From assembly GCA_964614065.1 (NCBI GenBank), contig CAZTJJ010000002.1, positions 6,878-70,877 of the forward strand: a stretch of 64,000 nt of DNA, read 5' to 3'. The position numbers and the translations under genes were made by a program. Positions 19,237 through 40,670 of this stretch are shown piece by piece. This DNA is from an uncultured Thermotogae bacterium. Its GTDB lineage: Bacteria > Bipolaricaulota > Bipolaricaulia > M55B111. Numbering within the stretch: the stretch's first letter is position 1; every line of letters starts with the position of its first letter. The notes under the pieces are model-generated. The model was given only the letters and a program-made list of their open reading frames with translations, was not told the DNA's origin and did no database searches.

Positions 19237-20118
19237 TCAACTAGTTAAGAGTTTCGCCGCTTTGACAGTATTCGCCATAATTAAGGTCGTAGTCATTGGT
19301 CCAACGCCTCCAGGCACGGGAGTAATGTAATCGGCTTTTTCCTTAACATTCTCGTAATCTACGTCTCCGGTTATCCCACCCTCAACCTCATTGATACCGA
19401 TATCGACAACTACGGCGCCTTCAGAGACCATATCTTCGGTAATAAAATCTATCTTTCCGACAGAAGAACAAAGAATATCCGCTTGCCTGGTCTTTTCTGG
19501 TAGGTCCTCAGTTTGATACTCGCAAATGGTGACAGCCGAGTAACCTTTCCTAAGTGCTAACATAGATAGTGGTAAACCAACAGCCCCACCGCCTACGACT
19601 ACGAATTCCGTACCTTCTAGATCTATACCCGAGTAATCCAATATTTCCATAACTGCATAAGGCGTCGCAGGAAGCAACGCTTCTGGATCATTTTTTAAGT
19701 CATCGTAGCTTGCCCGGAACGCACCGCCAGATAATAGTTTTCCACTATTAATTGGGTTAATACAGTCAATATCCTTTTTAGGGTCTATCTCGGTACGTAA
19801 CTCTCCAATCTCCAGATTCTCTGGAAGAGGTAGTTCTACGAAAAGCCCATGCACGGTCGGATCGCCATTTAATTCCCTAATTTTACCTACCAAATCTTTC
19901 TTAGAAATATCCGCATCTAGTTTAACACCGTCGTAATTAATTCCGAGATCCTCGGCCAGGCGCTTTTTCGTCCTATAGTATACTTTGGCACCAGGATCGT
20001 CACCAACTAAGACTGGAGCGATAGTTGGGTTTACACCCTGATCCTTAAGCTCAGATATTTCTTCTTTAAGTTCGCTCCGATACTCTTCCGCTATTTTATT
20101 TCCATTTAGTTTTTTCAT
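19237..20118 (-). CDS. folD: Methylene-THF dehydrogenase/cyclohydrolase (divergent)
   Basis: YxxxK (YYRTK), LPLP, PATP, VVVDIGIN, ITPVPGGVGPMT. Confidence 0.92.
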   Translation of the reverse strand: MKKLNGNKIAEEYRSELKEEISELKDQGVNPTIAPVLVGDDPGAKVYYRTKKRLAEDLGINYDGVKLDADISKKDLVGKIRELNGDPTVHGLFVELPLPENLEIGELRTEIDPKKDIDCINPINSGKLLSGGAFRASYDDLKNDPEALLPATPYAVMEILDYSGIDLEGTEFVVVGGGAVGLPLSMLALRKGYSAVTICEYQTEDLPEKTRQADILCSSVGKIDFITEDMVSEGAVVVDIGINEVEGGITGDVDYENVKEKADYITPVPGGVGPMTTTLIMANTVKAAKLLTS

Positions 20119-20147
20119 TTTACCTCCTTATCAAAAAATGAAACGGG

Positions 20148-20705
20148 TCAACTTTCGATTAGAGATAGCGCTTCGTCTCGAGCAGCTTTATCAGTCGTAA
20201 ACTTCCCACGTATTGCTGATGTCACCATCTTTGTCCCCGGTTTTTCAACTCCTCGAATCGTCATACACAAGTGTTCAGCCTTGATCTCAACAAGAACGCC
20301 ATACGGGTCAAGCTTTTCCATTAGTACGTCAGCTACCTGAGAAGTGAGCCTTTCCTGAATTTGCGGTTTGCTCGAAGCCACTTGCAGCGCCCGAGCCAAC
20401 TTACTCGCCCCGACAACACGTTTCTCCTTCGGCATATAGACAATACTTGCACTACCTAGAATAGGAAGCAAATGATGCTCACACAACGAATGAAACGGAA
20501 TGTTGTTTAGCAACACCATTTCTTTGTAATCCTCTTGAAAGAAAGTTGAAACTACGTCGCCCGGGTCTTTGTGGAGCCCATAGCAAAGCTCTTCCATCAT
20601 TCTAGCTACCCTGCTGGGAGTGTCCTTTAACCCAGGCCTACTTGGATCTTCCCCTATTCCTTCTAGGATTAATTCAGTTCCTCTTTCAATCTTTTCCTGA
20701 TTCAA
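20148..20705 (-). CDS. folE: GTP cyclohydrolase I
   Basis: DTPSRVARM, SLCEHHLLP, PQIQERLT, EHLCMTIRGV. Confidence 0.95.
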   Translation of the reverse strand: MNQEKIERGTELILEGIGEDPSRPGLKDTPSRVARMMEELCYGLHKDPGDVVSTFFQEDYKEMVLLNNIPFHSLCEHHLLPILGSASIVYMPKEKRVVGASKLARALQVASSKPQIQERLTSQVADVLMEKLDPYGVLVEIKAEHLCMTIRGVEKPGTKMVTSAIRGKFTTDKAARDEALSLIES

Positions 20706-20745
20706 TTCAAACTCCTAATACTACAATTATTTAGTCAAAGTTCGA

Positions 20746-22479
20746 TCAGAACAAACCAACTACGTTCCCTTCGTCATCAAGATCGACGTCCATATAAGCT
20801 GGCTCCGACGGTAACCCGGGCATAGTGCTCATCTCACCGCAAAGTGGATATACAAAACCCGCACCCACACTTGCACGGACCTCCCTTACTGGTAATGTAA
20901 ATCCAGTTGGTACTCCTTTTTTCTCCGCGTCATGTGAAAGTGAGAGATGAGTTTTCGCCATACACAAAGGAAGATCGCCAAAACCAGACTCTTCGTAATC
21001 TGAAATTTGTTTTTCAGCCTTACTGCTGTAATCCACTCCGTCAGCGCCATATACCTCTTTTGCGATTGTTTCGATCTTTTCTTTAATTGATTTGTCTATA
21101 TCGTAGAGGAATTCAAAGTTCGACTCCTCATCGGTCGCTTCTACGACGGCTTCCGCTAAATCAACAGAACCTGCACCACCTTCAGTAAAGTGGCTTGAGC
21201 CAACCGCATCGTAAGCGCCAGCCTCTATAGCCTTCTCCTTAACTAACTCAACTTCCTTGTCGGTATCCGTTTGAAACCTATTGACAGCAACTACAACAGG
21301 TACTCCAAACTTCTGAGCTATTTCAATATTCTTAGCCAGGTTAGCCGCCCCTTTCTCGAGCAACTCCAGGTTTTCCTCCGTATATGCTGAATCAAGATCT
21401 TTACCGGCAACGACCTTTGGCCCTCCACCGTGCATTTTCAAGGCTCTCACTGTAGCAACTAAAACGACGGCATCAGGTATAAGACCGCTGTAACGACATT
21501 TAATGTCGAAGAATTTCTCCATACCGATATCAGCACCAAATCCAGATTCGGTAACTACGTAATCGGCCAACTTCAAGCCAACCATGTCCGCCAGGATTGA
21601 ACTGTTTCCATGTGCGATGTTAGCAAATGGTCCAGCGTGTACAAATGCAGGCTGTCCTTCTAGAGTTTGCAACAGGTTGGGCTTAATTGTGTCTTTCATT
21701 AATACAGTCGCCGCACCCGCAGCACCGAGGTCTTCAACGCTAACAGGCTCTCCGTCCCAATTGTAACCTATCACTACTTTTCCGATTCGCTCACGTAAGT
21801 CGTCCAGCCCGTTGGTAAGACCCAATATAGCCATTAACTCCGAAGCGACCGTTATGTCAAACCCACTTTCACGCGGAAATCCATCCCACTTGCCACCGAG
21901 TCCTACATTGATGTTCCTTAACTCACGGTCGTTAACGTCAACAACGCGATTCCAGGTAATAGAATATGGATTGATATTTAACTTCTCCAAACCTTTTTTG
22001 GCCCAGGCCTGGTCAGAGTAATTGCGCTCATGCATCATTCGAGCGTCAATTGCAGCAGCAATGAGATTATGAGCTGCCCCTATTGCGTGGATGTCTCCCG
22101 TCAAATGAAGGTTGAAATCCTCCATAGGTATTACCTGGGAGTATCCTCCACCAGCGGCTCCACCTTTAATCCCAAAAGTGGGGCCCTGCGAGGGCTGACG
22201 GATGGCGGTCATTACATTCTTGCCAATCTTACCAAGTGCCTGAGTAAGACCAATGTTTGTAGTCGTTTTTCCCTCTCCCAAAGGTGTGGGGGTAATGGCC
22301 GTTACATCAATATACTTTCCGTCCGGTTCATTTTTTCTTTCTTCGTATGCATCAAGTTTAACTTTCGCCTTGTAGTCTCCATAAAGCTCCAACTCGTCTC
22401 TCCTTAGACCAACTTTTTCAGCAATATCTGTTATTGGCTTAAGATCCGCTTCTTGAGCAATTTGAATATCGCTCTTCAT
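20746..22479 (-). CDS. fhs: Formate--tetrahydrofolate ligase
   Basis: [68 protein letters not shown]. Confidence 0.97.
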
Positions 22480-22921
22480 GGGTGTAATTACCTCCTAAAT
22501 TTAATTGTAAAGTAAATGTAAACTCTAGATTTAGTAATACTTAAATTAAACGGTTTTCTCCCTTCTAATTAATCTCTACCAAAGAATACAAGTAGAAATT
22601 ACTCCTCTTTCATAAACTGTATTCTCTCATCCAGTAAGTGCAACCTAATCGAGGTCATTCAATTTTCTTTTGAAAAATCTGACCAGCACCTAGTTGAATA
22701 TTGACAAACGGAGATCGATGAAAACTTCGTGCTAGGTTTTAACTGCAGGTAAATCTCATTAACTAGGTACACATTAAGCTGGGTGCTGCACCAACTCTCT
22801 ATTCTCAAATTGAACGTACGGCTAACCGAAATTTTTCAATAAACGTGTAAAAACCACTCAGCCTAGGTAATAAAATCCTCCTTGAAAAGGGCGCGGTCAC
22901 GGTCCCTCGCATTTGTTACCG

Positions 22922-23710
22922 TTATGACTTACTTCTTATATATTTGAGGTAACCCAGACAACTTTTGTCCTCTCCAAGTAAGGCTTCTGCTGCCTTTAAG
23001 GTGTCCATCATCGGAGTGTCAGTTGGATCGATTAAAGCAGCATCCAATCCTGCCTCCAGAAGCATTGCAAACACCGTACGATTGATTAAACATCTGTCTG
23101 GAAGGCCAAAAGATACATTGCTTAATCCGATATTTGTTTTAACGCCGAATTCCTCCTTAATCTGCAGGACGGAGTCTATAACGTACTGACCCTGCTCTTG
23201 ATTGCTACCAATGGTCATTGCTATTACGTCAACGTATAGCTGATCTTTGGCAATACCCAGTTCATCGCATTTTTCGAGCAGGGCTTCAGTTTCGTTCAAT
23301 CTATCCTCGACTGTCATGGGCATCCCTTCGGCGCCCATTGCCAAACCTATGATATCGGCATCATAGCCTGAAGCGATTTCGCGGGCGTCCTGTTTATCTT
23401 TCTCGTTACTTATCGAATTTATGACAGGTTTATGTTTTACCTTCTCTAAACCAAATTCCAGTACCTCCGGATCCGGAGTATCAATAGCGATCCTCACGTC
23501 TTCGATTTCGTCTTCAACGACGTCTATTAACCATTCCATATCGCTTTTTTCCTTCTCTCTCGATTCACCAGCGTTCAGATCGATCGCATCTGCGCCAGCC
23601 TCAGTTTGTGCCCTTGCTAACCTACGAATAAAATCTTCATCTTTCTCTTTTAATGCCTTTTTTACCTCATCCCTTGTAGAGTTAATTAATTCACCAATGG
23701 TCAAAAACAT
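22922..23710 (-). CDS. Methyl-corrinoid:tetrahydrofolate methyltransferase (pterin-binding; AcsE/MtgA-like)
   Basis: IGELINSTR, GADAIDLNAG, IDT, INSIS, GLSNVSFGLP.R..IN, GLDAALIDP. Confidence 0.9.
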   Translation of the reverse strand: MFLTIGELINSTRDEVKKALKEKDEDFIRRLARAQTEAGADAIDLNAGESREKEKSDMEWLIDVVEDEIEDVRIAIDTPDPEVLEFGLEKVKHKPVINSISNEKDKQDAREIASGYDADIIGLAMGAEGMPMTVEDRLNETEALLEKCDELGIAKDQLYVDVIAMTIGSNQEQGQYVIDSVLQIKEEFGVKTNIGLSNVSFGLPDRCLINRTVFAMLLEAGLDAALIDPTDTPMMDTLKAAEALLGEDKSCLGYLKYIRSKS

Positions 23711-23961
23711 ATACAGTTACCTCCGAATTAAAATTTTATAACAATTGTCAAACTGTAAGTACTAATTCAAACGTTTACAAGTGAATAGCTTAAGCCAAAA
23801 AGCCGTAACTCAATTATAGAATATAACTAATGTGTTCACAAACACATGAGTTATAAATCTTAATTTAAGAAACCCTGTTGGATTTTTAATCTTACTCAAA
23901 CGGAACAACATCTACTCAGAAAACTTAAAGATTCCCTGCTCAATAAGGGTAAACCGGGCAT

Positions 23962-25416
23962 CTAACTCTGGCCAGAGTTGGTCCACCTCAATATGGGGTT
24001 CCGAGCAGCTTGTGTTTCATTTAGCCTTCCCACCGGTGTTTCAGTGGGTGCGTTGTGAAGAAGCTCAGGATCATCTGCCGCCTCTTGGGCAATACTTACC
24101 ATGGCCTGAAAGAAGCTATCAAGCGTTTCTTTGGTTTCAGTCTCCGTTGGTTCTATCATCAATGCTTCCTGGACAATCAAGGGGAAGTATACTGTTGGGG
24201 GGTGGTAACCGTAATCTAACAGCCGCTTTGCGATATCTATTGTCTTTACCCCTTCTCCCAAACCGCCGCCATTCAGAACAAACTCATGCTTACAGGTCCC
24301 TTTGTAAGCCAAGGTATAGACTTTCTGCAACTTCTCCTTTAAATAATTCGCATTCAAGACAGCATTTTCGCTGACCCGTTTTAGACCTTCGTCACCCAGA
24401 GCCAGTATATAGCAGTATGCTTTAACTAATACTCCAAAAGCACCAGGAAAACTATTTACCCGACCGATCGACTTCGGCCTGTCATAGCCAAACTGATATT
24501 CTTCATTATTCTTCTCTACTATCGGGACTGGGAGATACGGTTCGAGGTTTTCTTTCACAGCAACTGGTCCCGATCCAGGTCCCCCACCGCCATGTGGGGT
24601 ACTGAAAGTTTTGTGAAGGTTGAAGTGAGTGATATCCATTCCCAAGTCCCCGGGCTTGACCTTGCCGAGAAATGCATTTAAATTGGCACCATCGAAATAA
24701 CATAACCCACCAACATCATGAACAATGCTAGCGACTTCTAGTATATCCTTTTCAAATATCCCCAGCGTATTTGGAACTGTGAGCATAATACCTGCAGTAT
24801 TCTCGTCTGCTACTTCCTTTAGCCCATCAATGTCGACAGTTCCTTGATCGTTAGATTTCACCTCTATCGCCTCAAAGCCCGCTACCGCTGCAGAAGCGGG
24901 GTTCGTGCCGTGGGACGAATCGGGCAGTAGGATTTTATTTCGCTTGTCCAACTGGCCGTTTTCATGGTGATACTTCCTAATCATCAACATTCCTGTCAAC
25001 TCTCCATGCGCGCCTGCAGACGGCTGAAGAGTAATAGCATCCATGCCAGAGATCTTCTTTAGCAGTTGACCCAACTCATAGGATAACCTTAAGTTACCCT
25101 GAACAAGGTCATAAGACGCCAAGGGATGGTGTCCCTGGAATTCTTCAATTCTGGCTATATCCTCGTTCGGTTTCGGGTTATGTTTCATAGTACAAGAGCC
25201 AAGAGGATATAGACCATCGTCGACTCCGTAGTTCAACTTTGACAGTCTTACGTAATGTCGCACCAAGTCAGGTTGAGTCACCTCAGGTAAGCCAGGCTTT
25301 TCCGAACGAATCAAGCCATTATCTAACTCCGATTCCGGATCTTCCGAAAGCCAGTCTAGATAAGGAAAGAAAGTTGATTGTCGCCCTGATTTACTAATAT
25401 CGAAGATCGTTTCCAT
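23962..25416 (-). CDS. gcvPB: Glycine dehydrogenase (decarboxylating) subunit 2
   Basis: YPLGSCTMKHNP, LQPSAGAHGE, HGTNPASA, PLP-lysine NLHKTFSTPHGGGGPG, LMIEPTETE. Confidence 0.96.
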   Translation of the reverse strand: METIFDISKSGRQSTFFPYLDWLSEDPESELDNGLIRSEKPGLPEVTQPDLVRHYVRLSKLNYGVDDGLYPLGSCTMKHNPKPNEDIARIEEFQGHHPLASYDLVQGNLRLSYELGQLLKKISGMDAITLQPSAGAHGELTGMLMIRKYHHENGQLDKRNKILLPDSSHGTNPASAAVAGFEAIEVKSNDQGTVDIDGLKEVADENTAGIMLTVPNTLGIFEKDILEVASIVHDVGGLCYFDGANLNAFLGKVKPGDLGMDITHFNLHKTFSTPHGGGGPGSGPVAVKENLEPYLPVPIVEKNNEEYQFGYDRPKSIGRVNSFPGAFGVLVKAYCYILALGDEGLKRVSENAVLNANYLKEKLQKVYTLAYKGTCKHEFVLNGGGLGEGVKTIDIAKRLLDYGYHPPTVYFPLIVQEALMIEPTETETKETLDSFFQAMVSIAQEAADDPELLHNAPTETPVGRLNETQAARNPILRWTNSGQS

Positions 25417-25422
25417 CTCAGC

Positions 25423-26763
25423 TCACAACTCCCTTTCCAATAATTCAGCAAAATGATCCATATCTTCCTTGCGAATCTTTTCAGTGACGGCAAGCATAAG
25501 ATTCCGATCTAGACCCATATGCTTAAGATGCTTAGGATGTAACAAATCTATCCCTTCCTGTTTCATACTTTTCCAAATTCTTTCAGGATCATTACCAATA
25601 GTAATTACAAACTCGTTGAAAAACGGCTTCTCCCAGGTAAGCTGGACATTATCTATTTCTACTAATTTGCGGGCAAGATAGTGTGAAACCTGCCAGTTAA
25701 TTTCAGCCAATCTGGAAAACCCAGCTGGACCCAAAGCACTTAAATACACGGTAGCGGCCAGAGCGTTGAGAGCCTGATTTGTACAAATATTAGAAGTAGC
25801 TCTCTCTCTTCTGATGTGTTGTTCTCTTGTCTGTAAGGCCATCACGAAACCTTCGTTTCCTTCACCATCCGTTGTTTTCCCGCTTACTCTTCCCGGTAGA
25901 TACCTCAAATATTCTTTCCTGGTCGCAAATAAACCCAGCAAAGGACCTCCAAAACTAATCGGATTTCCTAACGGTTGACCCTCCCCTACCACGATGTCGG
26001 CGCCAAATTGACCTGGCGGTTCGAGCAGGCCAAGAGAAATTGGGTTTGAACTTACTATTAGGAACCCATCATTCACCTTTTCCTTTAATCCACGCAAATC
26101 CTCAATTAGCCCAAAATAATTGGGGGATTGCAAGACTAGTGCAGCTAAATCATCATTGCTGGACACCGTCCTTTCTAGAGCATTTGTATCGATAGTACCA
26201 TTGTTATCGGGTAGTTGGATAACCGAGTCGTCAGGATCTGGTAAGTAAGTTTCTATTACTTCCCTATACGCTGGATTTAGCGTATTTGCTACTACAACTG
26301 ATCTATTGCCCGTGTACTCTTGAGCCATTAACACCGCTTCCGCAGCCGCCGAGCCACCGTCATATAAAGAGGAATTCGCGATATCCATGCCGGTTAGCTC
26401 AGAGATCGCGGTCTGATACTCAAACATCCAAGTTAAAGTTCCCTGGCTAATTTCCGCCTGGTATGGCGTATAGGCACTATAAAACTCCGACCTACCGGTA
26501 ACGTGAGAGACAACTGAAGGAATAAAGTGATCATAAAGCCCGGCGCCAATGAAGTTGACACGGTCACCGGGCTTAGCATTCTCTTTTGCAAGGCTACCAA
26601 CTTCGTTCTTTAATTCCAGTTCAGTTCTTCCTTCTTCACCAATTAGCTCCCCTTGCACCTGCACTTCACTTGGAATATCGGAGAAGAGCTCAGCAATGGA
26701 GTCAACCCCAATTTCCTCCAACATTTCCCTCTTGTCTTCGTCCGTGTTGGGTATAAAGTCCAT
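25423..26763 (-). CDS. gcvPA: Glycine dehydrogenase (decarboxylating) subunit 1
   Basis: AYTPYQAEISQG, NSSLYDG, GEGQPLG, LQTREQHIRRERATSNICTNQ. Confidence 0.96.
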   Translation of the reverse strand: MDFIPNTDEDKREMLEEIGVDSIAELFSDIPSEVQVQGELIGEEGRTELELKNEVGSLAKENAKPGDRVNFIGAGLYDHFIPSVVSHVTGRSEFYSAYTPYQAEISQGTLTWMFEYQTAISELTGMDIANSSLYDGGSAAAEAVLMAQEYTGNRSVVVANTLNPAYREVIETYLPDPDDSVIQLPDNNGTIDTNALERTVSSNDDLAALVLQSPNYFGLIEDLRGLKEKVNDGFLIVSSNPISLGLLEPPGQFGADIVVGEGQPLGNPISFGGPLLGLFATRKEYLRYLPGRVSGKTTDGEGNEGFVMALQTREQHIRRERATSNICTNQALNALAATVYLSALGPAGFSRLAEINWQVSHYLARKLVEIDNVQLTWEKPFFNEFVITIGNDPERIWKSMKQEGIDLLHPKHLKHMGLDRNLMLAVTEKIRKEDMDHFAELLEREL

Positions 26764-26775
26764 CTGGATGAATAA

Positions 26776-27423
26776 TTAGTTTCTTAGCTCTTTGACCAAG
26801 TTTTTGATTAAAGTCGTGGCGGAAGCTGCATCGGGTGCGTACCCATCTGCCCCAATCTCCTCACAGTAATCCTGTGATACGGGAGCACCACCTATTGCTA
26901 CTTTAACGTCATCCCTCAAGCCTTCCTCTTTGAGTGCCTCAATCACTTCCGGCATATGCGTCATGGTGGTGGTCAAGAGAGCAGACATACCTACGACGTC
27001 AGGCTCTAACTCTTTAGCCTTCTCAACAAATTCTTCAACCGGGGTTTCCGCACCTAGGTTCTCTACTTCAAAGCCAGCACCTTCTATCATCATGCCAACC
27101 AGGTTCTGTCCTATGTCGTGTAAGTCCCCCTCCACTGTACCAAGTATGACTTTGCCCGCAGGCTCTACACCTGATTCCGTCAGTAACGGCCTCAACAGCT
27201 TCATTGCCCCCTTCATGGCCTCCGCGGATAGCAACATTTCGGGAACGTACCTATCTCCATTTTCGTATTCTTCCCCAACTCTATCCATAGCGGGAACGAG
27301 GGAATCGTTCAAAAGTACCTCGGGATCCATTCCTTCATCTAATGCCTGTTCGGTTAACTCCACCGTTGTATCTTCATCCATATCAAATACTGCTTTACCT
27401 AAATCTTCCAGTAAGTCACTCAT
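26776..27423 (-). CDS. Methyltransferase cognate corrinoid protein (MtgC/MttC-like)
   Basis: B12 cap domain plus DxHxxG (GDLHDIG), SxL (MSALLTTTM) and GGAP motifs. Confidence 0.95.
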   Translation of the reverse strand: MSDLLEDLGKAVFDMDEDTTVELTEQALDEGMDPEVLLNDSLVPAMDRVGEEYENGDRYVPEMLLSAEAMKGAMKLLRPLLTESGVEPAGKVILGTVEGDLHDIGQNLVGMMIEGAGFEVENLGAETPVEEFVEKAKELEPDVVGMSALLTTTMTHMPEVIEALKEEGLRDDVKVAIGGAPVSQDYCEEIGADGYAPDAASATTLIKNLVKELRN

Positions 27424-27468
27424 ATTATTAGAAACCTCCTGTTTCTTGCGTAATCAATTGTTAAATTG

Positions 27469-27496
27469 ATTATATACTGTCATCATAGTCATACAA
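27469..27496 (-). promoter_or_regulatory. Putative promoter for corrinoid protein-gcvPA-gcvPB
   Basis: Minus strand TTGTAT, 16 bp, TATAAT upstream of SD AGGAGG. Confidence 0.55.
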
Positions 27497-27600
27497 GTGA
27501 AAAGGTGGGAGGATTTATCCCACACAACTACGTTCCCTTGTGGATTATCAAGAGGGCGCTGAACATTAAACAGTGAAGCCTAAATGTTGATAACTCCATA

Positions 27601-32147: not shown

Positions 32148-33596
32148 TTACAATTTATCTATGACTGCATCTATCTTCTCAATAACATCATCAGATAGAG
32201 GCTTCGGCTCTTGCTCTTCCAATATGGTGTTAACCTTCTCTTCCAACCTTTCTTCCATGGATTTCGACCCTTTGTTCTTCCAGGTATCAGGGACATCTCT
32301 ATCCATCAATGTGGGCTCCCAAGCCACCTCTTTAAAGTTATCCAAAGTATGCTTGTGTGTCAAATGATTCCCGCCTGGACCCACTTCATCTATGACGTCC
32401 AAGGCCAACGTGTAGTCATTTACCTCTACTCCATCGACGAATTTCTTGATCATGCCTACAATTTCGTCGACCATGGCTATCTCGCTGAGAGAGCCTGTGG
32501 TGCCAGATTCCATGTAACCGACATCGTGGACGAGATTGGCCCCACTGAGTGCAGAGAAGAGAACCGACAAGGTGGTCTCAATTCCCATTTGCTGATCAAC
32601 TACCTTGGAATCAGCACAACCAGCTGTACCAAATGTCGGAAGATCGTAGTAATGCGATATATCCATGTATGCAGCTGTAGCAAGTTCCTTCTCCGGAGCA
32701 CCGTAAGCAAGAATCGCCGTCTGCATGTCCATGATAGAAAATACACCCCCGATGAAGAACGGCAAACCCTCACGTTTTACCTGAGAGATTACAAGCCCGG
32801 AAAGGTTTTCCGCGTTTCCTTGAGCAAGCTGACCGGCCAAGGTAACGGGTGCGCTCGCACCTGCTTGAGGAATCGGGGTATGGACAGTCGGTATACCGTA
32901 CTCCGCCGTAAGAAGTAGCTTTTTTGACGCTTCTTTGTCGTGGGTTAGTGGAGAGATAGGCTCGGAATAGGAAACTACAAACGGCTTATGGAGAAATTCC
33001 TCCTTACTTCCCGATACAGCCGTGGCCATCTCCATAATATCCTTCAGGCCTTCATTTGTATAACTCCAAGCTACGATTGGTTTAGTCGTATTCTTTACCA
33101 TTGCCTGAAACTCATGCCGATCAGACAACTCGTGAGGAACATCGTCAATTGTACCTAGACCGGACACCCAGTCTATATTGTCCAACGCGTCCACCAAACG
33201 AGCGGCATTTACTGTATCTTGTTTTCGAAAAGGTCTCCTTTCTCCGGTCTCCGGGTCCCGCATCTTAAGGAGCGTTGGGCCCAGACCAAACGTTACGTTA
33301 TGTCCGCCGAGCGTCAGGGGATTTTTCCCTTCTCTATTGAACAGATAGGTACGGCTCGGGGCAGCATCAATGGCCCACTCAACCAAACCCGGAGGGAGAA
33401 AGACCCTTTCACCTTCAACCAAGCACCCTGCGTCCTTTAACAGATCCCTGGTCTCTTTGAGATGTATATTCACTCCAGTGTTCTTTAAAATTTCTAACGA
33501 GGCTTGATGTATATCTTTCACTTGTGATTCGCTAAGCACGTTAAAACTAACCTTATCCTGGGAAGACCTATTGGTAAAAAGTTGATTTTTTAACAT
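32148..33596 (-). CDS. Trimethylamine methyltransferase superfamily protein, non-pyrrolysine (MtgB-like), copy 2
   Basis: IHQASLEILKNTG, PISPL, GASAPVTLAG, GAPE, DSKVVDQQ, GANLVHDVGYMESG; no in-frame TAG. Confidence 0.92.
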   Translation of the reverse strand: MLKNQLFTNRSSQDKVSFNVLSESQVKDIHQASLEILKNTGVNIHLKETRDLLKDAGCLVEGERVFLPPGLVEWAIDAAPSRTYLFNREGKNPLTLGGHNVTFGLGPTLLKMRDPETGERRPFRKQDTVNAARLVDALDNIDWVSGLGTIDDVPHELSDRHEFQAMVKNTTKPIVAWSYTNEGLKDIMEMATAVSGSKEEFLHKPFVVSYSEPISPLTHDKEASKKLLLTAEYGIPTVHTPIPQAGASAPVTLAGQLAQGNAENLSGLVISQVKREGLPFFIGGVFSIMDMQTAILAYGAPEKELATAAYMDISHYYDLPTFGTAGCADSKVVDQQMGIETTLSVLFSALSGANLVHDVGYMESGTTGSLSEIAMVDEIVGMIKKFVDGVEVNDYTLALDVIDEVGPGGNHLTHKHTLDNFKEVAWEPTLMDRDVPDTWKNKGSKSMEERLEEKVNTILEEQEPKPLSDDVIEKIDAVIDKL

Positions 33597-33605: not shown

Positions 33606-35063
33606 TTAATAACGAACCTCTCGGTTTTCTCTTTCTTCTTCAATTAACGCATCGAGCTCCTTCGTCTTCGCTTCTTCCAGAACTTCAGGCTCGTGTGTTT
33701 CCAAGATTTCTTCTGTACTCTCGTGAATTCGCTCACCCATCGTTTTACTCCCATTGCTCTCCCATTTCTCAAAGTTGGTCCGATCCATCAAGCTGGGTTG
33801 CCATTGTTCTTTTTTAAAATTATCCATAGTATGAGATGTACTGAGAAAGTTGCCTTTGGGTCCCACTTCGTTGATAACATCGAGCGGAATTCTGTCCCCT
33901 GAAGTATCTATTCCTCTCATAATTCTTTTCACCATTCCGATTATCTCGTTGCTCATTACTAGTTGATCATAGGAGTAAAGGAGTCCAGAAGACAGGTAAC
34001 CCACGTCGTGGATCAAGTTCGCACCAACGAGAGCCTGGGTTGCGATGTTGAAGGTGGCTTCAATCGCCGCTTGAGTATCGACCAACTTCGAATCCGATAC
34101 ACCTGCGGTTCCAAACATCGGTAATTCCAGATAATTGCTCATTTCTGTGACAGCTGCGTTCATCAGGGCAAACTCCGGTCCACCGTAGACATAACCTGAG
34201 GTTTTCATATCCAAGATCGAGTAGATTCCACCAGTAACCATAGGCGCACCTTTTTTCACCAGCTGTGATAAAGTTATTCCTGTCAAAGATTCAGCTAGGC
34301 CCAAAGCAATGGATCCCGCCAAAGTCATTGGACTCACAGCACCAGCCGATGGCATCGGAGTATAGATAGTGGGTAAGTTATTTTTCGCCCCGAAAATAAC
34401 CTGAGCGGCGACTTCCTTGCTATGACTCAGGGGAGTAACGGGTTCGATATAGTGAATAATGTACGGTTTTGCCTTCAACTTGTCCTCCCCACCAACCGCA
34501 ATTGCCGCCATGTCAAATATGTCCTTTGTACCTCTGTCATCCCAAGAGCAGAACATAACAGGTTTAGTGGTATTAGCCATTACCTGGCGTGCCTCCAATA
34601 TATCTTGGATATTCTCCGGCTGCTTCCGTAGAAGGCCAGTTGGAGAAGAAAAATCAATGTTGTCAAGGTAGTCACATATCCTAGCCCATTTGGCGATATC
34701 TTCCGCCGTAGTTTGCCTCATCTCGCCATTTTCATCCAAAGTCCTTGGTACGTCCGTCCCAGATCCGAAATAAGAATTTGTTCCCCCTAACCGCATCGCC
34801 ATTTCTCCGTTTCTATCGTACATGAGGATCTTCTTGGGGGCTTCCTTGACGGCCTCGTCAACCAGATGCGAAGGTATATGGACCATCTCACCTTCCACTG
34901 TTGCTCCTGCATCGGAGAAAATCTTCCTTGCTTCTTCGTGCTCGATCTTTACCCCCGTGTTCTGAAGTATTTCCAGGGACGCATCGTAAATTTGAGCTCT
35001 GTCATCCTCGGATAATATATTCAGCTGAGGGGTCTTGTTGACTAACTTATTCGACTCTAACAT
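33606..35063 (-). CDS. Trimethylamine methyltransferase superfamily protein, non-pyrrolysine (MtgB-like), copy 1
   Basis: IYDASLEILQNTG, PVTPL, GAVSPMTLAG, GGPE, DSKLVDTQA, GANLIHDVGYLSSG; start at the ATG after GGAGG. Confidence 0.92.
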   Translation of the reverse strand: MLESNKLVNKTPQLNILSEDDRAQIYDASLEILQNTGVKIEHEEARKIFSDAGATVEGEMVHIPSHLVDEAVKEAPKKILMYDRNGEMAMRLGGTNSYFGSGTDVPRTLDENGEMRQTTAEDIAKWARICDYLDNIDFSSPTGLLRKQPENIQDILEARQVMANTTKPVMFCSWDDRGTKDIFDMAAIAVGGEDKLKAKPYIIHYIEPVTPLSHSKEVAAQVIFGAKNNLPTIYTPMPSAGAVSPMTLAGSIALGLAESLTGITLSQLVKKGAPMVTGGIYSILDMKTSGYVYGGPEFALMNAAVTEMSNYLELPMFGTAGVSDSKLVDTQAAIEATFNIATQALVGANLIHDVGYLSSGLLYSYDQLVMSNEIIGMVKRIMRGIDTSGDRIPLDVINEVGPKGNFLSTSHTMDNFKKEQWQPSLMDRTNFEKWESNGSKTMGERIHESTEEILETHEPEVLEEAKTKELDALIEEERENREVRY

Positions 35064-35084
35064 ATGAACCTCCATAGTATTATT

Positions 35085-35099: not shown

Positions 35100-35261
35100 G
35101 TGATATATCGTTAATATACTACCCTGCTCCAAATACAATTTCAAATTAGGAAAATAAATCCCAAATCAAACTCCATTATGTTGTTTTCGAGGTGAATCAC
35201 GATAATTAGTTAGGTGCTGGCTCTTGGTCCAAATCGGCAAAGTGGGTGGATACTTTCCAGA

Positions 35262-35897
35262 TTAAGTCTCCATGTGCCCCGCGGTAATAAACTGTTCCTT
35301 TATTTCCCTGACGAAATCATTCATGTGTGAAGCCAGTATATTTCCACTTTTGACCTCGTCGCCATCCGCAAGAGCTTCAATCAATCCACTAAACTCTTCA
35401 CCAAACGAGCTCATGAAGTCTTTACGCCTTGGGAAAACCCAAATTCTAACAGTCTGCTGGCGGAGCTTCCTCAAACTCTCTGCCAACACTTTATTATGTG
35501 TGGCGTTATTGATAATCTCGTGCCCCTCTGAATCCAACTTCATGAGTTTTTTAGAATCAGTTTCTTTCTTCAATTTTTTTACCAGTTTTTTCAGCTCTTC
35601 CAATTGCTTTTGTTGTATGCGGCGCGCAGCCAACCTACCGGCTAATTTTATCAAATAGCTTCGTACTTCGAACAGATCTCTAAGCTCGTGGAAACTCACA
35701 GTTGAGACGTAAGTTCCACTATGGGGAACGGTAGTGATCAAACCCTCTGTCTCTAGTTTGATAAATATCTCTCGAAGGGGGGTCCTCCCGATATCATACT
35801 CCTCTCGAAGCTCCTTCTCCCTTAACTGCTTGCCGGGCTCATAATCGAGATAGACGATTTTCTCCCTAATAATTTTTAGAACTTCATCTCTTTCCAT
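35262..35897 (-). CDS. GntR family transcriptional regulator (FCD domain)
   Basis: wHTH with GRTPLREIFIKLETEGLI..PHSG; C-terminal FCD with His residues. Confidence 0.92.
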   Translation of the reverse strand: MERDEVLKIIREKIVYLDYEPGKQLREKELREEYDIGRTPLREIFIKLETEGLITTVPHSGTYVSTVSFHELRDLFEVRSYLIKLAGRLAARRIQQKQLEELKKLVKKLKKETDSKKLMKLDSEGHEIINNATHNKVLAESLRKLRQQTVRIWVFPRRKDFMSSFGEEFSGLIEALADGDEVKSGNILASHMNDFVREIKEQFITAGHMET

Positions 35898-36043
35898 TAG
35901 TAAACACTTATCCCTTACTTCATTGAATTCTTCGTTTAACCTGGTTAAAAAGAAGTTTTAAGAGTCCAGGCAATTAAATGTTAATCTTCACACAGTTACC
36001 TTAAACACGCAATAGTAACTAACGAAGAAGGTATTCACAAATT

Positions 36044-36991
36044 TCAGTCAGACTTCTTGACCACAAAGAAACTCCTATAAAGGGCCGAAATTCCACCTGG
36101 GTAGAATATCATAACTGCAATCAACACTACACCATAGATTATTAATCTCAATTCCATAAGCGGTTGGAGGTAGGTAAGCACCGGTATAAAAATCATTGCA
36201 GCGATTAACGAGCCCCAGACACTTCCTCTGCCTCCGACGTAAGCCAAGGCCATAATCTCGATTGTTTGACTTGTTTCCATAACGCTAGGGGTGAGTATTC
36301 CCATAAAATGGGCATAAAAACCACCAATTAATCCCGCTATGGCTGTAGACACAGTAAAGTTCAAAACTCTATAGTGTACCGGATTGACTCCGGATGCTTT
36401 TGCAGCGTCCTCATCTTGACCTATAGCTCGAAAAAACAGACCAACTTTTGAATTTGCGATTGCTAATAGTACGACCAAGCTGAACGCCGCCATCACCAGT
36501 ATTACGTAGAAATAGGGTTGACGATCCATAGTGTCAAAAAACATTGGACTCATTAAACCCAGAGGACCACGGGTCAAACTCGTCCAGTTAGTAATCACTG
36601 ACATCAACGCTAAGCCGGTAAACCACGCCATCACAGCTGCAAAGATACCATGTAACCGCAAAGTCAATAACCCAACAAACAAACCCAGCAAAGCCGAAAT
36701 TAGAAACCCGGCAAAAATTCCCAACCAAGGTGTTACTCCTAATTTCGCCGCAAGCAGGGCCGAGGTATACCCCCCAATTCCCCAAAACGCCGCAAAACCA
36801 AAGTTCACCACGTTAATAAAACCCACCGTAAAATCGAATGCCATAGCCAGAGTGCCAAACATCAACGCAGATATAAGGAGCTGTAATATATATTGATCGG
36901 AGACAAAAAGTGGTACAAAAGCCAACACGATTAGCAATGCCAAGCCAGGATTGGTATAGTTAGATTTGGCAAGCCGTTCTATCAATTGCAT
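36044..36991 (-). CDS. HAAT (branched-chain amino acid type) ABC permease LivM-like
   Basis: GFINVVNFGFAAFWGIGGY, GPLGL, RAIGQDEDAAKASGV, AYVGGRGS. Confidence 0.9.
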   Translation of the reverse strand: MQLIERLAKSNYTNPGLALLIVLAFVPLFVSDQYILQLLISALMFGTLAMAFDFTVGFINVVNFGFAAFWGIGGYTSALLAAKLGVTPWLGIFAGFLISALLGLFVGLLTLRLHGIFAAVMAWFTGLALMSVITNWTSLTRGPLGLMSPMFFDTMDRQPYFYVILVMAAFSLVVLLAIANSKVGLFFRAIGQDEDAAKASGVNPVHYRVLNFTVSTAIAGLIGGFYAHFMGILTPSVMETSQTIEIMALAYVGGRGSVWGSLIAAMIFIPVLTYLQPLMELRLIIYGVVLIAVMIFYPGGISALYRSFFVVKKSD

Positions 36992-36998
36992 TAGTTAC

Positions 36999-37904
36999 TT
37001 ACCTCTCCCATATGCCTTTAACATCGGATCCAAATAGCCCTCTCGGCTTGAACAAAAGAATCAGTATTATCAGAGCCAGACTGAAAAGTCTCTGCCACCC
37101 CGACCCAAAACCATACGCCGCAAACGTCTCTATTAAACTTATTATCAAAGCCCCAACAGGTACAGCAGCGATATTGCCCAAACCGACCAAGATCACCACA
37201 AACCACGAGGAAAACAAAGGCATTAAACCCATGGTCGGATAAGCCGGATTGAGCGATAATAACGAGGCTCCTGCAACACTCGCCAGCATGGCAGAAAGCG
37301 CAAAAGTTAAAGTATGAATAGTATCCAAGTTAATACCAACTACCTTGGCCCCCACCTCGTTCTGAGCAACGGCTCTAATTGCCTTGCCCATCGTGGTCTT
37401 CTGCAAAAATAACCAAAAAATGATCACTACGATAATCGCAATCGCTACCCCAACCAGCCTGTCAATGGAGACCGAAATTCCTGTAATTCTTAAACTACCC
37501 TGCCAGTAGCTGTCGATACCCCTGTATTTAGTACCAGCAATTACTTGTATAAGATTCTTCAACAGCAGCGAAAGGCCTACAGTTACTAAAAAAGTGTTCA
37601 TTATCCATATCTTACGTCTTTCTGATCTCTTCCGGAGGGGATAGAAGACGCTTTTCTCTATTATCGCGCCAATTACAAAACCACCAATTCCCGCAAATAG
37701 TATAGCTACCAAAGGAGGTAAACTTAGCCCACTAAAAGTGAACACCGCTATATATGCCCCAATCATATACAGTTCTCCATGAGCAAAATTTGGAACGTTC
37801 ATAACACCAAAGATAAGAGACAATCCGGTTGCCGACAGAGTATATAGACCAGCTCTAACTATCGCAGCAACCAATAAGCTTGCCAGCGTAGGACCTGAAA
37901 TCAT
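36999..37904 (-). CDS. HAAT ABC permease LivH-like
   Basis: GLSLIFGVMNVPNFAHGE, RAVAQN..AKVVGI, LVGLG. Confidence 0.9.
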   Translation of the reverse strand: MISGPTLASLLVAAIVRAGLYTLSATGLSLIFGVMNVPNFAHGELYMIGAYIAVFTFSGLSLPPLVAILFAGIGGFVIGAIIEKSVFYPLRKRSERRKIWIMNTFLVTVGLSLLLKNLIQVIAGTKYRGIDSYWQGSLRITGISVSIDRLVGVAIAIIVVIIFWLFLQKTTMGKAIRAVAQNEVGAKVVGINLDTIHTLTFALSAMLASVAGASLLSLNPAYPTMGLMPLFSSWFVVILVGLGNIAAVPVGALIISLIETFAAYGFGSGWQRLFSLALIILILLFKPRGLFGSDVKGIWER

Positions 37905-37914
37905 CGTTTACCCT

Positions 37915-38628
37915 CTATAACCAGTCTTTAATAACTTCTTTTACGTCAGCAAATTCCTCTCGAGAACCTTGTGTTTTGTTTTTCCCCAATTCTACCGCGT
38001 AAATGTAGTCCGATATCTCAATTGCCTTTCGGATATTCTGATCGACCAATAGTATAGTAATCCCGTCGTCGGTTAACCTGGTTAACATATCATACATGCT
38101 CTGAGCTAGATTTGGTGCTAGACCAGCAGTCGGTTCGTCCACCAAAAGCATCTCTGGAGCACTCATCAGTGCTCGCCCCAGGTCGACCATCCTTTGCTGG
38201 CCGCCAGAAAGGTTACCAACGGATGTATTTTGTTTTTCTTCAAGAATAGGAAATCTCTCAAAATTATCACTAATCCGCTGGTTGATAATTTCTTTATCTC
38301 GTCTGATCGTCCAGGCTCCCAGTTGGAGGTTTTCTTTCACTGTCATCCGTTGAAATAGGGTAAGCTGCTGAGGCAAGTAAACTATTCCTCTCGTAATTGC
38401 CTTAAACGGTTTTATTCCCGTTATGGAGTTATCTTTATACTTGATGTCTCCGGAGTTTGGATCAAGGAAACCGCTGATTGATTTAAGCAACGTCGACTTA
38501 CCGACACCATTCGGCCCCAAGACCGCCGTAATCTGCTGTTTCTCAGCTTCCAGGCTTAATCCCTGTAATATATTAATATCCTCGTAATACCCGACGTACA
38601 GGTTCTCTACTTTCAGCAAATTAATCAC
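37915..38628 (-). CDS. HAAT ABC ATPase LivF-like
   Basis: GPNGVGKST, LSGGQQRM, DEPTAGLAP, LLVDQN. Confidence 0.9.
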   Translation of the reverse strand: MINLLKVENLYVGYYEDINILQGLSLEAEKQQITAVLGPNGVGKSTLLKSISGFLDPNSGDIKYKDNSITGIKPFKAITRGIVYLPQQLTLFQRMTVKENLQLGAWTIRRDKEIINQRISDNFERFPILEEKQNTSVGNLSGGQQRMVDLGRALMSAPEMLLVDEPTAGLAPNLAQSMYDMLTRLTDDGITILLVDQNIRKAIEISDYIYAVELGKNKTQGSREEFADVKEVIKDWL

Positions 38629-39337
38629 CTAGATAAGCTTCCAGAACGGCCTCTTCCTCCCTTACGATTTCGGGAGGTCCTTCAGTTAACTTTTTTCCCT
38701 GGGCAAAGACTATTACTCGCTCGCTTAACTTAAAGATGGATTCCATATCGTGGCTTATGATTAAAAAGGACTTCCCTGCCCGGTATAGCTCGTTAATGTG
38801 AGAATGTAAGTCAGAACGCAATTCCGGATGAACACCAGCAAACGGTTCATCCAACACAATGATATTAGGGTCAAGCATCATAACCCTACCCAGCTCCAGC
38901 AATTTCTTCTGTCCACCTGACAAATTCACCGATAACTCCTCTTCCAAGTGTCTAATCAAGAGAAAATCCATTATCTCCTGCGCCTTCTTTTTCACTTCCT
39001 CCCGATTACTGCGTTTTGTAGCAAGAGCTGGGACCAGCAAATTCTCAGTTACCGTAAGTTGTTCAAAACCTCTGGTGATTTGGAAGGTCCTGCCCATGCC
39101 TAATGCTGCGATTTTATAGGACGGGAGACCCATTATCTCCTGATCGCCGAGCTTTATGGAACCGGTATCAGCGGGCAACAATCCCGTAATGACGTTGACA
39201 AAGGTCGTTTTACCTGCACCGTTTGGTCCAATCAATCCCGCTAGTTGTCCTTCTTCTATAACGACGTCAACTCCATCTAATGCCTTTACTCCACCAAAAT
39301 ATTTCTTCAAACCACTGACAACTAGATTAATTAGCAT
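38621..39337 (-). CDS. HAAT ABC ATPase LivG-like
   Basis: FGGVKALDGV, GPNGAGKTT, GRTFQ, LSGGQKKLLE, DEPFAG, VLEAYLG; start at the ATG after GGGAGGG. Confidence 0.9.
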   Translation of the reverse strand: MLINLVVSGLKKYFGGVKALDGVDVVIEEGQLAGLIGPNGAGKTTFVNVITGLLPADTGSIKLGDQEIMGLPSYKIAALGMGRTFQITRGFEQLTVTENLLVPALATKRSNREEVKKKAQEIMDFLLIRHLEEELSVNLSGGQKKLLELGRVMMLDPNIIVLDEPFAGVHPELRSDLHSHINELYRAGKSFLIISHDMESIFKLSERVIVFAQGKKLTEGPPEIVREEEAVLEAYLGD

Positions 39338-39395
39338 CCCTCCCATAAAGACAATGGGAGGCCCGGTGAAGCCCCCCATTATTCAGCGTTCCTGA

Positions 39396-40670
39396 TTATT
39401 TCAAATACGGAGGAATCTCAAATTTTCCTTCCGCCCACGCCTGGGGCCATATAACGGTTCCTTCTCCCTCATGATATTGAATGACCGGGTAAATGTAGAA
39501 ATTCTTGCCGACCACAGGATCTGGAGAAGATTCTGGTGTATACTTGTACTCCTTCATAAGAATACCGTCAGTGTAAGTTAAATCACCTGTCCTAACCAAA
39601 TAGTGATTTACTTTTTGAATGGTCTCCGAGTTTATCTCTCCGTAAAGTTGATAGGTCTTTCTCAATATTTTGATAAGGTAATTCGCTCCATCGAATGCCA
39701 AACCAGAAGAAGACGCACTGGGTTTGACGTTCCATTCCTCCTCGAACCTTTCCTTAAATGCCTTGGCCTCCTTACTTGCAAACTGAGGTATTTCATCCAG
39801 CACGTAGTCGGAAGCATCTCCAGCCAGGTCATACCATTCGCCCATCCAGCCAAGTCCATCAGCTATGATAATACCCTTTAAACCTACCTCTCTAGCCTGC
39901 TTGACCAACGCGGCAAACGAAGAAGGCACTGTAGACGTCCCGGCAACTACTGATACTTTCTTTTCCTTCCATTTGGTTAAGAGTGGATAGAACTTCGTTT
40001 GCTTCATTTCAAAGTAATCTTTTGAAAGTACGTTCCATCCGGCTTCTTCGAACTGCTGGGCTATCGCTCCACCAAAGCTTCTACCCCAATCCGTATTCTC
40101 TCCATAGATTGCCACGTTCATGGTGGGTGCTTCCCACACACCATCTTCAACTGCTTCGGTAAGCGTAGTCACGTAAGCAACAGACAACTTCCTGGGTGTA
40201 GGCCAGAACTTACCGCTATCGTAATATTGGTACTTCTCGGGATTCTCGTGATACTTATCCAGAATCACTTGAGTCGCAGCTCCACCAAAGAAATGTGGGA
40301 TTTCATACTTTGCCGCCATATCCATCAGCGCTACGGAGACCGAACTGTGCCAGTTAAAGGTCGTGACATCTACGCCTTTTCTGGTTACTGCCTGCATATA
40401 GTTACGCGTTGCTTTTTCGGGAACAGATTCAGTATCTACTTTTACGAGTTTTACGTCGTAGCTCCCTATTTTATTGTTGATGTCATCAAAGGCCATGTTA
40501 TAAGATCGCCATATTTCGCTCCCCACGCGGGCATTCGGCCCAGTAAAAGGGCCAGTAACGCCTACAACCACTTCTTCTCCAACCACACCTAAACTGGAAA
40601 AACCGACAAAAAGTAAAGACAACATAAAGAACACTATTAAACTTTTGGTTGTCGAATTAACTGTTATCAA
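39396..40670 (-). CDS. HAAT ABC substrate-binding protein (LivK/LivJ-like fold)
   Basis: Signal peptide, VGVTGPFTGPNA..G, VKVDTES.PE, ENTDWGRS; TTG start after GAGGTG (ORF track starts 40685). Confidence 0.85.
   Translation of the reverse strand: MITVNSTTKSLIVFFMLSLLFVGFSSLGVVGEEVVVGVTGPFTGPNARVGSEIWRSYNMAFDDINNKIGSYDVKLVKVDTESVPEKATRNYMQAVTRKGVDVTTFNWHSSVSVALMDMAAKYEIPHFFGGAATQVILDKYHENPEKYQYYDSGKFWPTPRKLSVAYVTTLTEAVEDGVWEAPTMNVAIYGENTDWGRSFGGAIAQQFEEAGWNVLSKDYFEMKQTKFYPLLTKWKEKKVSVVAGTSTVPSSFAALVKQAREVGLKGIIIADGLGWMGEWYDLAGDASDYVLDEIPQFASKEAKAFKERFEEEWNVKPSASSSGLAFDGANYLIKILRKTYQLYGEINSETIQKVNHYLVRTGDLTYTDGILMKEYKYTPESSPDPVVGKNFYIYPVIQYHEGEGTVIWPQAWAEGKFEIPPYLK

Follow-up and report, generated by a model that had tools for sequence, protein, structure and literature searches.

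We describe a conserved gene block in a 64,000-nucleotide stretch of DNA (hereafter called the window) from an uncultured bacterium of the Bipolaricaulota lineage. The window belongs to contig C2 of a 2.0-Mb metagenome-assembled genome, which is 88.7% complete. The block occupies positions 19237–40685 and consists of 19 open reading frames, every one of which lies on the minus strand, as determined from the open reading frame listing, Pfam, and NCBIfam. These sources placed every gene that the original prediction had named for positions 19237–40670 where it had been located, in the same order and on the same strand. The window also holds the lipoyl carrier gene gcvH, which the original prediction had not listed, and a divergently oriented ATPase gene. 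The features are as follows.

39396–40685, minus strand: HAAT solute-binding protein (SBP; Pfam)
36044–39379, minus strand: LivG, LivF, LivH, and LivM of the HAAT-family ABC transporter (Pfam)
35262–35897, minus strand: GntR/FCD regulator (Pfam)
33606–35075, minus strand: MttB1 (Pfam MTTB, PF06253, 384 bits)
32148–33596, minus strand: MttB2 (Pfam MTTB, PF06253, 329 bits)
30882–32054, minus strand: ProV, ABC ATPase with a weak CBS match (Pfam)
29875–30885, minus strand: ProW permease, overlapping ProV by 4 bp (Pfam)
28859–29758, minus strand: ProX1, OpuAC-type (Pfam OpuAC)
27658–28569, minus strand: ProX2, OpuAC-type, 50% identical to ProX1 (Pfam)
27505–27523, minus strand: candidate operator palindrome, upstream of the CoP promoter
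27469–27496, minus strand: CoP promoter, TTGTAT-16-TATAAT
26776–27423, minus strand: corrinoid protein CoP (Pfam B12-binding_2 and B12-binding)
25423–26763, minus strand: GcvPA (NCBIfam equivalog, 570 bits against a cut-off of 364)
23962–25416, minus strand: GcvPB (NCBIfam equivalog, 730 bits against a cut-off of 441)
22922–23710, minus strand: pterin-binding methyltransferase MT (Pfam Pterin_bind; PRK07535, 263.8 against a cut-off of 259)
20746–22479, minus strand: Fhs (Pfam)
20148–20705, minus strand: FolE (Pfam)
19237–20118, minus strand: FolD (Pfam)
3000–3398, minus strand: GcvH, lipoyl carrier (PF01597, 141.7 bits)
41090–43012, plus strand: Hyd640, hydantoinase-A/MutL-like ASKHA ATPase (Pfam Hydant_A_N and Hydantoinase_A)

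The 21-kb block is divided into at least six transcription units, as judged from the intergenic gaps and a terminator scan. Strong hairpin/T-run terminators are located 3′ of ProX1 (28790–28757), ProX2 (27631–27605), and FolD (19204–19179), and a hairpin follows MttB2 (32135–32110). Promoter-like sites precede CoP (27469–27496) and MT (23841–23813). The units are likely to be HAAT, GntR, MttB1-MttB2, ProVW-ProX1, ProX2, CoP-gcvPA-gcvPB, MT, and fhs-folE-folD. Among these, the operon CoP-gcvPA-gcvPB is tightly spaced: its genes are separated by 12 and 6 bp. The original prediction had linked amine uptake, corrinoid methyl transfer, folate C1 oxidation, and glycine decarboxylation in a single cluster; the genes are indeed joined, and the arrangement is conserved as described below, but they do not form one operon. 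Two perfect palindromes were also observed at the promoters: ATCAATTTAACAATTGAT (approximately 27453–27470) overlaps the start region of the CoP promoter, and ATGTGTTTGTGAACACAT (approximately 23820–23837) overlaps the −35 box of the MT promoter.

How widely is this arrangement conserved? Six contigs of halophilic Bipolaricaulota from another genus (Great Salt Lake, Tobar, and others), whose GcvPA proteins are 69–71% identical to that of the window, keep the order GntR-MttB1-MttB2-ProVW-ProX-ProX-CoP-gcvPA-gcvPB-MT-fhs-folE-folD-Ddl-PPase. Since the order from GntR to folD is retained in six genomes at this level of divergence, the arrangement is under selection and not a product of chance. 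The adjacency of CoP, gcvPA, and gcvPB is kept in loci L023–L028 and in the same-family genome G004, and the CoP-gcvPA spacing in the relatives is about 5–20 bp. Elsewhere the P-protein genes have other neighbours: about 35 other Bipolaricaulota contigs carry gcvH-gcvPA-gcvPB alone, and other phyla carry gcvT-gcvH-gcvPA-gcvPB. While gcvH is directly 5′ of gcvPA in the non-halophilic Bipolaricaulota, it is apart from gcvPAB here. The number of MttB copies follows the block: there are 11 in this genome, 6–12 in four relatives of the supercluster clade, and 0–2 in seven other Bipolaricaulota, and the MttB expansion is restricted to the clade with the supercluster. The block is a conserved C1 supercluster of the halophilic (KB1-like) Bipolaricaulota. 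The HAAT operon was considered as a family-wide core part and rejected as such, because it is absent from the next-genus relative G043, in which a Hyd ortholog (56% identity) directly precedes GntR with no HAAT genes between them. The HAAT operon occupies the same place, at 84–92% identity, in the same-genus genome G002, and it is a genus-level addition. With Hyd at its head, the core shared by the six genomes of the other genus extends from Hyd through GntR to folD.

The promoter region of the CoP-gcvPA-gcvPB operon contains a second layer of conservation. The ProX2-CoP spacer has diverged among the relatives, except for the palindrome GTGGGAT-N5-ATCCCAC and, 8 nt further on, the promoter TTGTAA-16-TATAAT. 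The palindrome is kept in all of the relatives compared, and the promoter is invariant in five of them. In the window, the palindrome reads GTGGGAT-N5-(c)TCCCAC, and 8 nt separate its end from the −35 box of the CoP promoter. Its only other good copy in the genome (C7:30848–30866) is 5′ of btuF-btuC-btuD-cobO-cobS-cobU-cobT. Nine of ten relatives have 2–4 copies per genome, as compared to 0–1 for the reversed control, and these copies precede CoP-gcvPA, btuFC, and cbiMNQ (loci L122–L139). The palindrome is centred near −52 at CoP, and at btuF and cbiM it occupies roughly +7 to +25, downstream of a conserved −10-like box. We read this palindrome as one candidate DNA operator of a corrinoid/cobalt regulon. 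From its placement, the uptake operons would be repressed and CoP would be activated.

An RNA attenuator was considered for the hairpin upstream of CoP and was rejected, because the hairpin is upstream of the conserved promoter. Moreover, the sequence of both arms is conserved, loci L027 and L028 have uncompensated changes, and the identical sequence lies downstream of the btuF and cbiM promoters. Rfam searches detected no cobalamin riboswitch at the btuF or cbiM loci, and neither a glycine nor a cobalamin riboswitch 5′ of CoP-gcvP or anywhere in the window, with gathering scores as well as in E-value mode. The shared site suggests that B12 control is exerted here by a protein, in a position usually taken by the cobalamin riboswitch. 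Because the operator is shared with corrinoid and cobalt genes, the cell's only P-protein genes are tied to the corrinoid methyl-transfer machinery, rather than to a glycine sensor or to the MttB and ProU promoters. The remaining intergenic regions of the block contain no convincing shared GntR-type operator. The GntR/FCD protein (35262–35897) is probably a local regulator of the MttB pair, judging from its position: GntR paralogs or orthologs are 5′ of MttB1-MttB2 pairs on contig C95 of the same genome and in loci L107, L108, and L111.

Next to be considered is the identity of MttB1 and MttB2. In MtgB, the betaine is held by cation-π interactions with Tyr97 and Phe356, and its carboxylate is recognized by Arg312 and His348, of which Arg312 is kept in all of the characterized members (PMC13080624). 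Reference sequences 9YCE and 7XCL were recovered from HMMER alignments, the numbering offset was fixed, and all 11 MttB paralogs of the genome were aligned with them. The columns of Tyr97, Arg312, His348, and Phe356 are T/F/H/G in MttB1 and P/F/H/G in MttB2, and a pairwise check of MtgB agrees with the alignment. Only one of the 11 paralogs, encoded on contig C112, has the MtgB-type residues (Y/R/H/Y), which the protein L107_a retains as well. In the maximum-likelihood tree, the C112 protein and L107_a group with Desulfitobacterium hafniense MtgB (support 100/99), while MttB1 and MttB2 form sister clades apart from MtgB, each with support of at least 99/97. Each of these clades holds three paralogs of this genome together with members from unrelated contigs. 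Consequently the window proteins are not of the MtgB type, as they belong to two other clades and have none of Tyr97, Arg312, and Phe356.

The pyrrolysine-dependent methyltransferase identity also fails. Methanosarcina barkeri MttB (PDB 7XCL) resembles the window pair at these positions, with V/Y/Y/G in the four columns (small or aromatic V/Y/G at those of Tyr97, Arg312, and Phe356), and it scores against the window MttBs at nearly the level of MtgB (227 vs 250 bits). However, the window proteins have Val (MttB1) or Cys (MttB2) in the pyrrolysine column, no internal stop interrupts any of the 11 paralogs, and the scores against the trimethylamine methyltransferase model TIGR02369 are 446–449 (446 for MttB1), below the cut-off of 525. 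A pyrrolysine-dependent trimethylamine methyltransferase is ruled out by these low scores and the lack of an in-frame UAG. Among the MttB2 homologs, 112 of 119 have Cys in the pyrrolysine column, and the pattern P/S, W/F, H, G/A is constant. Cys also occupies this column in most MttB1-type proteins, in which the Val of the window MttB1 differs. Both window proteins have the MttB-superfamily TIM-barrel fold shared with MtgB, as assigned by PF06253. By alignment and phylogeny, we assign MttB1 and MttB2 to a widespread, tandem-pair, non-pyrrolysine subfamily of the MttB superfamily, which is uncharacterized.

The genome contains three MttB1-MttB2 tandem pairs, on C2, C95, and C76. The C95 set (C95:147–6408; L116) is a second GntR-MttB1-MttB2 arrangement, after which come a gene for ornithine cyclodeaminase/mu-crystallin and one for a HAAT binding protein; these two neighbours hint at a proline-type betaine as the substrate of that pair. 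The more general idea that each pair is located beside a catabolic enzyme for its demethylated amino acid was only partly borne out, as it fits the ornithine cyclodeaminase/mu-crystallin gene on C95 while C76 has nothing telling.

The MttB pair is not confined to the Bipolaricaulota. The window module (GntR, the MttB pair, CoP, MT, and Hyd) is the same as one found in other phyla together with RACo, FolD, and MetVF. Two loci from Mono Lake sediment (L107 and L108) read GntR-[MtgB-type]-MttB1-MttB2-ProVWX-MT-CoP-Hyd-RACo-FolD-MetV. The order MttB pair-MT-CoP-RACo is found in L109 and L111, the latter with MetV-MetF in addition, and L118 combines the MttB pair with OpuA. In the cultured haloalkaliphile Halarsenatibacter silvermanii (L140, FNGO01000002.1:112022–133992), the order is HAAT-CoP-MttB(2-type)-CoP-MttB(1-type)-Hyd-DUF1638-DAO-...-MetV-MetF, and its HAAT system is unrelated to that of the window. 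The identities to the window proteins across these lineages are 50–53% for MttB1, 57–62% for MttB2, 60–70% for CoP, 63% for ProX1, 53% for MT, 47% for GntR, and 37% for Hyd. Since the MtgB-type protein, MttB1, and MttB2 share one importer, one MT, and one CoP in L107 and L108, this trio fits a three-step demethylation of betaine. Since each MttB has its own CoP in H. silvermanii, MttB1 and MttB2 are probably separate enzymes. H. silvermanii is a possible laboratory model for the MttB pair.

Hyd640 is a lone A-type protein, with the B subunit absent. Its homologs are located between CoP and RACo in L107 (16221–18155; 37% identity), after the CoP-MttB pairs in H. silvermanii (L140:10001–11971), and beside RACo and a pyrrolysine-type MtbB in an MSBL1 archaeon (L141:3736–5664). 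HydA is also listed in the legend of Fig. 5 in a study of glycine betaine clusters (PMC9768040). These gene neighbourhoods place Hyd640 within the system, as an accessory gene that is conserved at corrinoid methyltransferase loci of this type. It could function as an ATP-dependent activator or chaperone, or in substrate activation, and is a recurrent, unexplained partner of corrinoid methyltransferases.

The remaining proteins of the module specify the route into and out of the methyltransferases. The importer has the composition of the OpuA type, with OpuAC-fold binding proteins, the ProW permease, and the ProV ATPase. The closest solved relatives of ProX1 and ProX2 are the glycine betaine binders 3TMG, 2B4L, and 7AHC. 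Both proteins keep the three Trp residues that align with Lactococcus lactis W330, W377, and W484, which we take to be the ligand-binding Trp prism (Wolters et al. 2010). Because of these relatives and the three prism residues, the ProX ligand should have a trimethylammonium-type head. In NCBIfam, the proteins score weakly best against a choline SBP model. The OpuA-type importer with its two binding proteins is predicted to take up trimethylammonium-type osmolytes. CoP is an MtgC-like corrinoid protein by its domains, and its scores against the models (NCBIfam) fall below the cut-offs: 212.3 against 215.3 for TIGR02370, and 205–207 against 310–370 for the MtgC models. MT is assigned by PRK07535 as a methyl-corrinoid:tetrahydrofolate (THF) methyltransferase (MtgA/AcsE-like). 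It shares 35% identity with an AcsE-like paralog that neighbours ACS on contig C5, from which it is distinct.

The original prediction had placed metF, gcvT, lipoamide dehydrogenase (Lpd), and the RACo activator outside the window. A profile search of the genome found three metF genes, two RACo genes, and three Pyr_redox_dim proteins as Lpd candidates (the best on C11), while gcvT gave no GCV_T match in this 88.7% complete assembly. ACS adjoins the AcsE-like paralog and a RACo gene on C5. Because ACS, the AcsE-like MT, three metF, and two RACo genes are present, we regard this as a Wood-Ljungdahl organism. GcvPA and GcvPB exceed the NCBIfam equivalog cut-offs and are the P-protein of the glycine cleavage system (GCS), and the H-protein is likewise present. 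The genes gcvPA, gcvPB, gcvH, fhs, folE, and folD are all single-copy. Within this family, the only gcvPAB and the only fhs-folE-folD of the cell have become merged into the module.

The gcvT gene is probably a SHMT-GcvT fusion that was cut off at a contig end. In the relatives, GCV_T lies within a SHMT~partial-T~GcvT fusion of 1070–1230 residues (L021:6865–10398; L019:9179–12397). In the present genome, the first 61 residues of this fusion are encoded at the end of contig C69 (8781–8954), and the assembly contains no other SHMT. An assembly break is for these reasons the likeliest cause of the missing gcvT, and a true absence was rejected as the main reading. In this class of Bipolaricaulota, gcvT is known solely as the SHMT~GcvT fusion, which in G004 is directly 3′ of gcvPB (L021:2848–10398, CoP-gcvPA-gcvPB-SHMT~GcvT). 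No match to the glycine reductase component GrdB (PF07355) was found in the genome, in a search in which the control genomes gave no match either.

We compared the block with the known systems. Like MtgB/MtgC/MtgA of D. hafniense and Acetobacterium woodii (PDB 2QNE and 9YCE), it combines an MttB-fold methyltransferase I with a small corrinoid protein and a pterin-binding methyltransferase II, it is linked to a betaine importer and the Wood-Ljungdahl methyl branch, and the genome holds a true MtgB-type paralog (on C112). It differs in that its first methyltransferases are a tandem pair from two other clades that lack Tyr97, Arg312, and Phe356, its importer is an OpuA-type ABC system and not BCCT, the Hyd ATPase is added, and gcvPAB is inserted between CoP and the second methyltransferase. 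A "second architecture" described in strain DCMF, Sporomusa ovata, and "Ca. Frackibacter" (PMC9768040, Fig. 5) also contains CoP, methyltransferases I and II, HydA, RACE, and ProX. Those organisms end with sarcosine reductase, whereas here the cluster contains glycine decarboxylase and no Grd match was obtained (controls silent). This HydA-type architecture occurs in organisms that demethylate beyond dimethylglycine: strain DCMF demethylates betaine stepwise to sarcosine (PMC9768040), and the premise of the original prediction that demethylation stops at dimethylglycine is too narrow.

The closest precedent is the KB1 single-cell cassette from the Orca Basin (Nigro et al. 2016, PMC4993014), in which a halophilic OP1/Bipolaricaulota relative has a compact ProVWX cassette beside MttB-family and Wood-Ljungdahl genes. 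That study noted glycine decarboxylase and floated complete demethylation to glycine in 2016, and it found no dimethylglycine-demethylating enzyme; judging by its main text, it describes no tandem MttB pair, CoP-gcvPAB operon, Hyd, or shared operator (PMC4993014). Other papers on halophilic Bipolaricaulota mention mttB in passing only. Our literature search found no description of MttB1/MttB2 as a subfamily, of the CoP-gcvPAB operon, of the Hyd partner beyond one figure legend, or of the shared operator. As in the canonical gcvT-gcvH-gcvPA-gcvPB operons, the two P-protein subunits are genuine equivalogs and a GcvH is encoded; here, gcvH is displaced, gcvT is probably a SHMT fusion elsewhere, and CoP heads an operon without a glycine riboswitch. 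Canonical gcv operons are often under the control of a glycine riboswitch.

These comparisons lead to the following model. The imported N-methyl groups would be transferred by the MttB proteins to Co(I)-CoP and then to THF, and the methyl-THF would be oxidized via MetF, FolD, and Fhs, with ATP formed at Fhs, or used to produce acetyl-CoA. This general function of uptake, corrinoid methyl transfer to THF, and C1 oxidation is highly probable from the gene content, and matches the physiology of methylotrophic acetogens. Glycine decarboxylase and the corrinoid methyl-transfer machinery would be switched on jointly, the reason being that demethylation of betaine leaves glycine as its carbon skeleton. 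Finally, GcvPAB, GcvH, and the SHMT-GcvT fusion would convert glycine to methylene-THF, CO2, NH3, and serine.

How would betaine be stripped to glycine? In the most probable assignment of steps, the C112 MtgB-type paralog would convert glycine betaine to dimethylglycine, and MttB1 and MttB2 would act on the tertiary and secondary amines, yielding glycine, since their quaternary-amine cage is lost and these sites resemble those of the trimethylamine MttB. Complete anaerobic stripping of betaine is plausible, and for the whole proposal, with glycine as the end product, we consider the chances evenly balanced. The original prediction had deduced full stripping from the position of gcvP between CoP and MT: the conserved, joined cluster and the CoP-gcvPAB operon support it in part, and glycine is a plausible end product. 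Further evidence for complete stripping comes from the trio operon of L107 and L108, from the lost quaternary-amine cage of MttB1/2, and from the B12-type control of CoP-gcvPAB. The specific cascade of MtgB, MttB1, and MttB2 is doubtful. Joining all of these elements gives an oxygen-free, three-enzyme cascade from betaine through dimethylglycine and sarcosine to glycine, in which the tandem pair would be the first corrinoid methyltransferases to act on tertiary and secondary amines independently of pyrrolysine, and a B12-sensing factor that replaces the riboswitch, represses B12 and cobalt uptake, and activates the CoP-gcvP operon via one palindrome; this combined proposal is speculative, and is unlikely to hold in every part.

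Among the organic osmolytes of hypersaline sediments, glycine betaine is the main one, and its anaerobic fate sets the supply of trimethylamine, hence of methane. If the proposal is true, the complete stripping of betaine to glycine, CO2, NH3, and acetate by such a clade would act as a sink and circumvent the methanogenic route. In addition, the MttB1/MttB2 pair may reveal the pyrrolysine-free demethylation of tertiary and secondary amines.

Several observations weigh against complete stripping. None of the seven MttB1/2 contexts inspected in other phyla has a GcvP gene beside the module, and most of the modules elsewhere lack an MtgB-type neighbour and adjoin an OpuA-type importer, which has a quaternary ligand. 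The MttB1/2 clades contain no enzyme of assigned substrate, and they lack the carboxylate-binding Arg312 that is expected for dimethylglycine or sarcosine. The presence of three MttB pairs in one genome implies several substrates, which cannot all be glycine derivatives. Furthermore, gcvPAB, fhs, and folD are single-copy housekeeping genes, and the assembly gave no GCV_T match. G004 keeps CoP-gcvPAB, yet this 78% complete genome has no MttB match (nor a copy of the palindrome). If the MttB absence is real, the corrinoid protein beside gcvP has a non-MttB partner there. Finally, no RNA sequencing runs containing the locus were found.

The strongest alternative, which we nevertheless consider unlikely, is that the position of the C1 genes reflects housekeeping clustering. 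MttB1/2 would remove only one or not all of the methyl groups of a quaternary amine of another kind (e.g., a non-acidic, choline-like one), the product would be excreted, and the GCS would serve the general balance of glycine and C1 units instead of betaine catabolism. The single-copy state of gcvPAB, gcvH, fhs, folE, and folD opens this possibility, as the clustered genes are the genome's only copies and folE is biosynthetic. The strong terminators that split the block, the linkage of FolD, MetV, and MetF to MttB modules without GcvP in other phyla, and the weak preference of the ProX proteins for the choline model agree with it, as does the loss of Arg312, which is kept in all characterized enzymes for acidic substrates (PMC13080624). 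However, CoP and MT flank gcvPAB in six genomes of another genus, with a CoP-gcvPA spacing of about 5–20 bp, and the closest solved ProX relatives bind glycine betaine. Unless there is a functional link, it is difficult to account for the placement of the only P-protein under a promoter with the operator of the B12-uptake genes.

A second alternative is the reverse use of the GCS, which we regard as improbable. GcvPAB, GcvH, and SHMT-GcvT would act synthetically: glycine, serine, and pyruvate would be built from methyl-derived methylene-THF, CO2, and NH3, and the demethylated skeleton would be discarded. Consistent with this use, gcvPAB is co-transcribed with CoP, the general methyl carrier, instead of with any one MttB; fhs and folD are adjacent, as in reductive glycine clusters; and G004 has the order CoP-gcvPA-gcvPB-SHMT~GcvT with no MttB nearby. 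The fusion of gcvT to SHMT in this class couples glycine/serine interconversion, but is equally suited to the catabolic conversion of glycine to serine. Acetyl-CoA is already obtainable from C1 units through ACS with AcsE and RACo, and glycine reductase was not found, in a search whose control was silent.

The least probable alternative, which we give very little weight, keeps the degradation of betaine to glycine but assigns the dimethylglycine and/or sarcosine steps to flavoenzymes, with MttB1/2 uninvolved: an arrangement of DAO, Pyr_redox_2, and 4Fe-4S ferredoxin occurs twice in the genome (C107 and C110), but these complexes have no GCV_T-type folate domain, are linked neither to the cluster nor to a betaine importer, and belong to a SoxB/proline-dehydrogenase-like family that is better known as L-proline dehydrogenase in anaerobes. 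A "sarcosine oxidase" gene reported in the KB1 study (PMC4993014) is in line with such a route. The two complexes (C107:1–5942 and C110:1–5626; L113 and L114) include a DAO protein of 381 residues, and may offer a way of oxidizing N-methyl amino acids anaerobically. Next to the C107 complex there are also an aldehyde:ferredoxin oxidoreductase and a paralog of the GntR/FCD regulator of the window, to which it has 35% identity.

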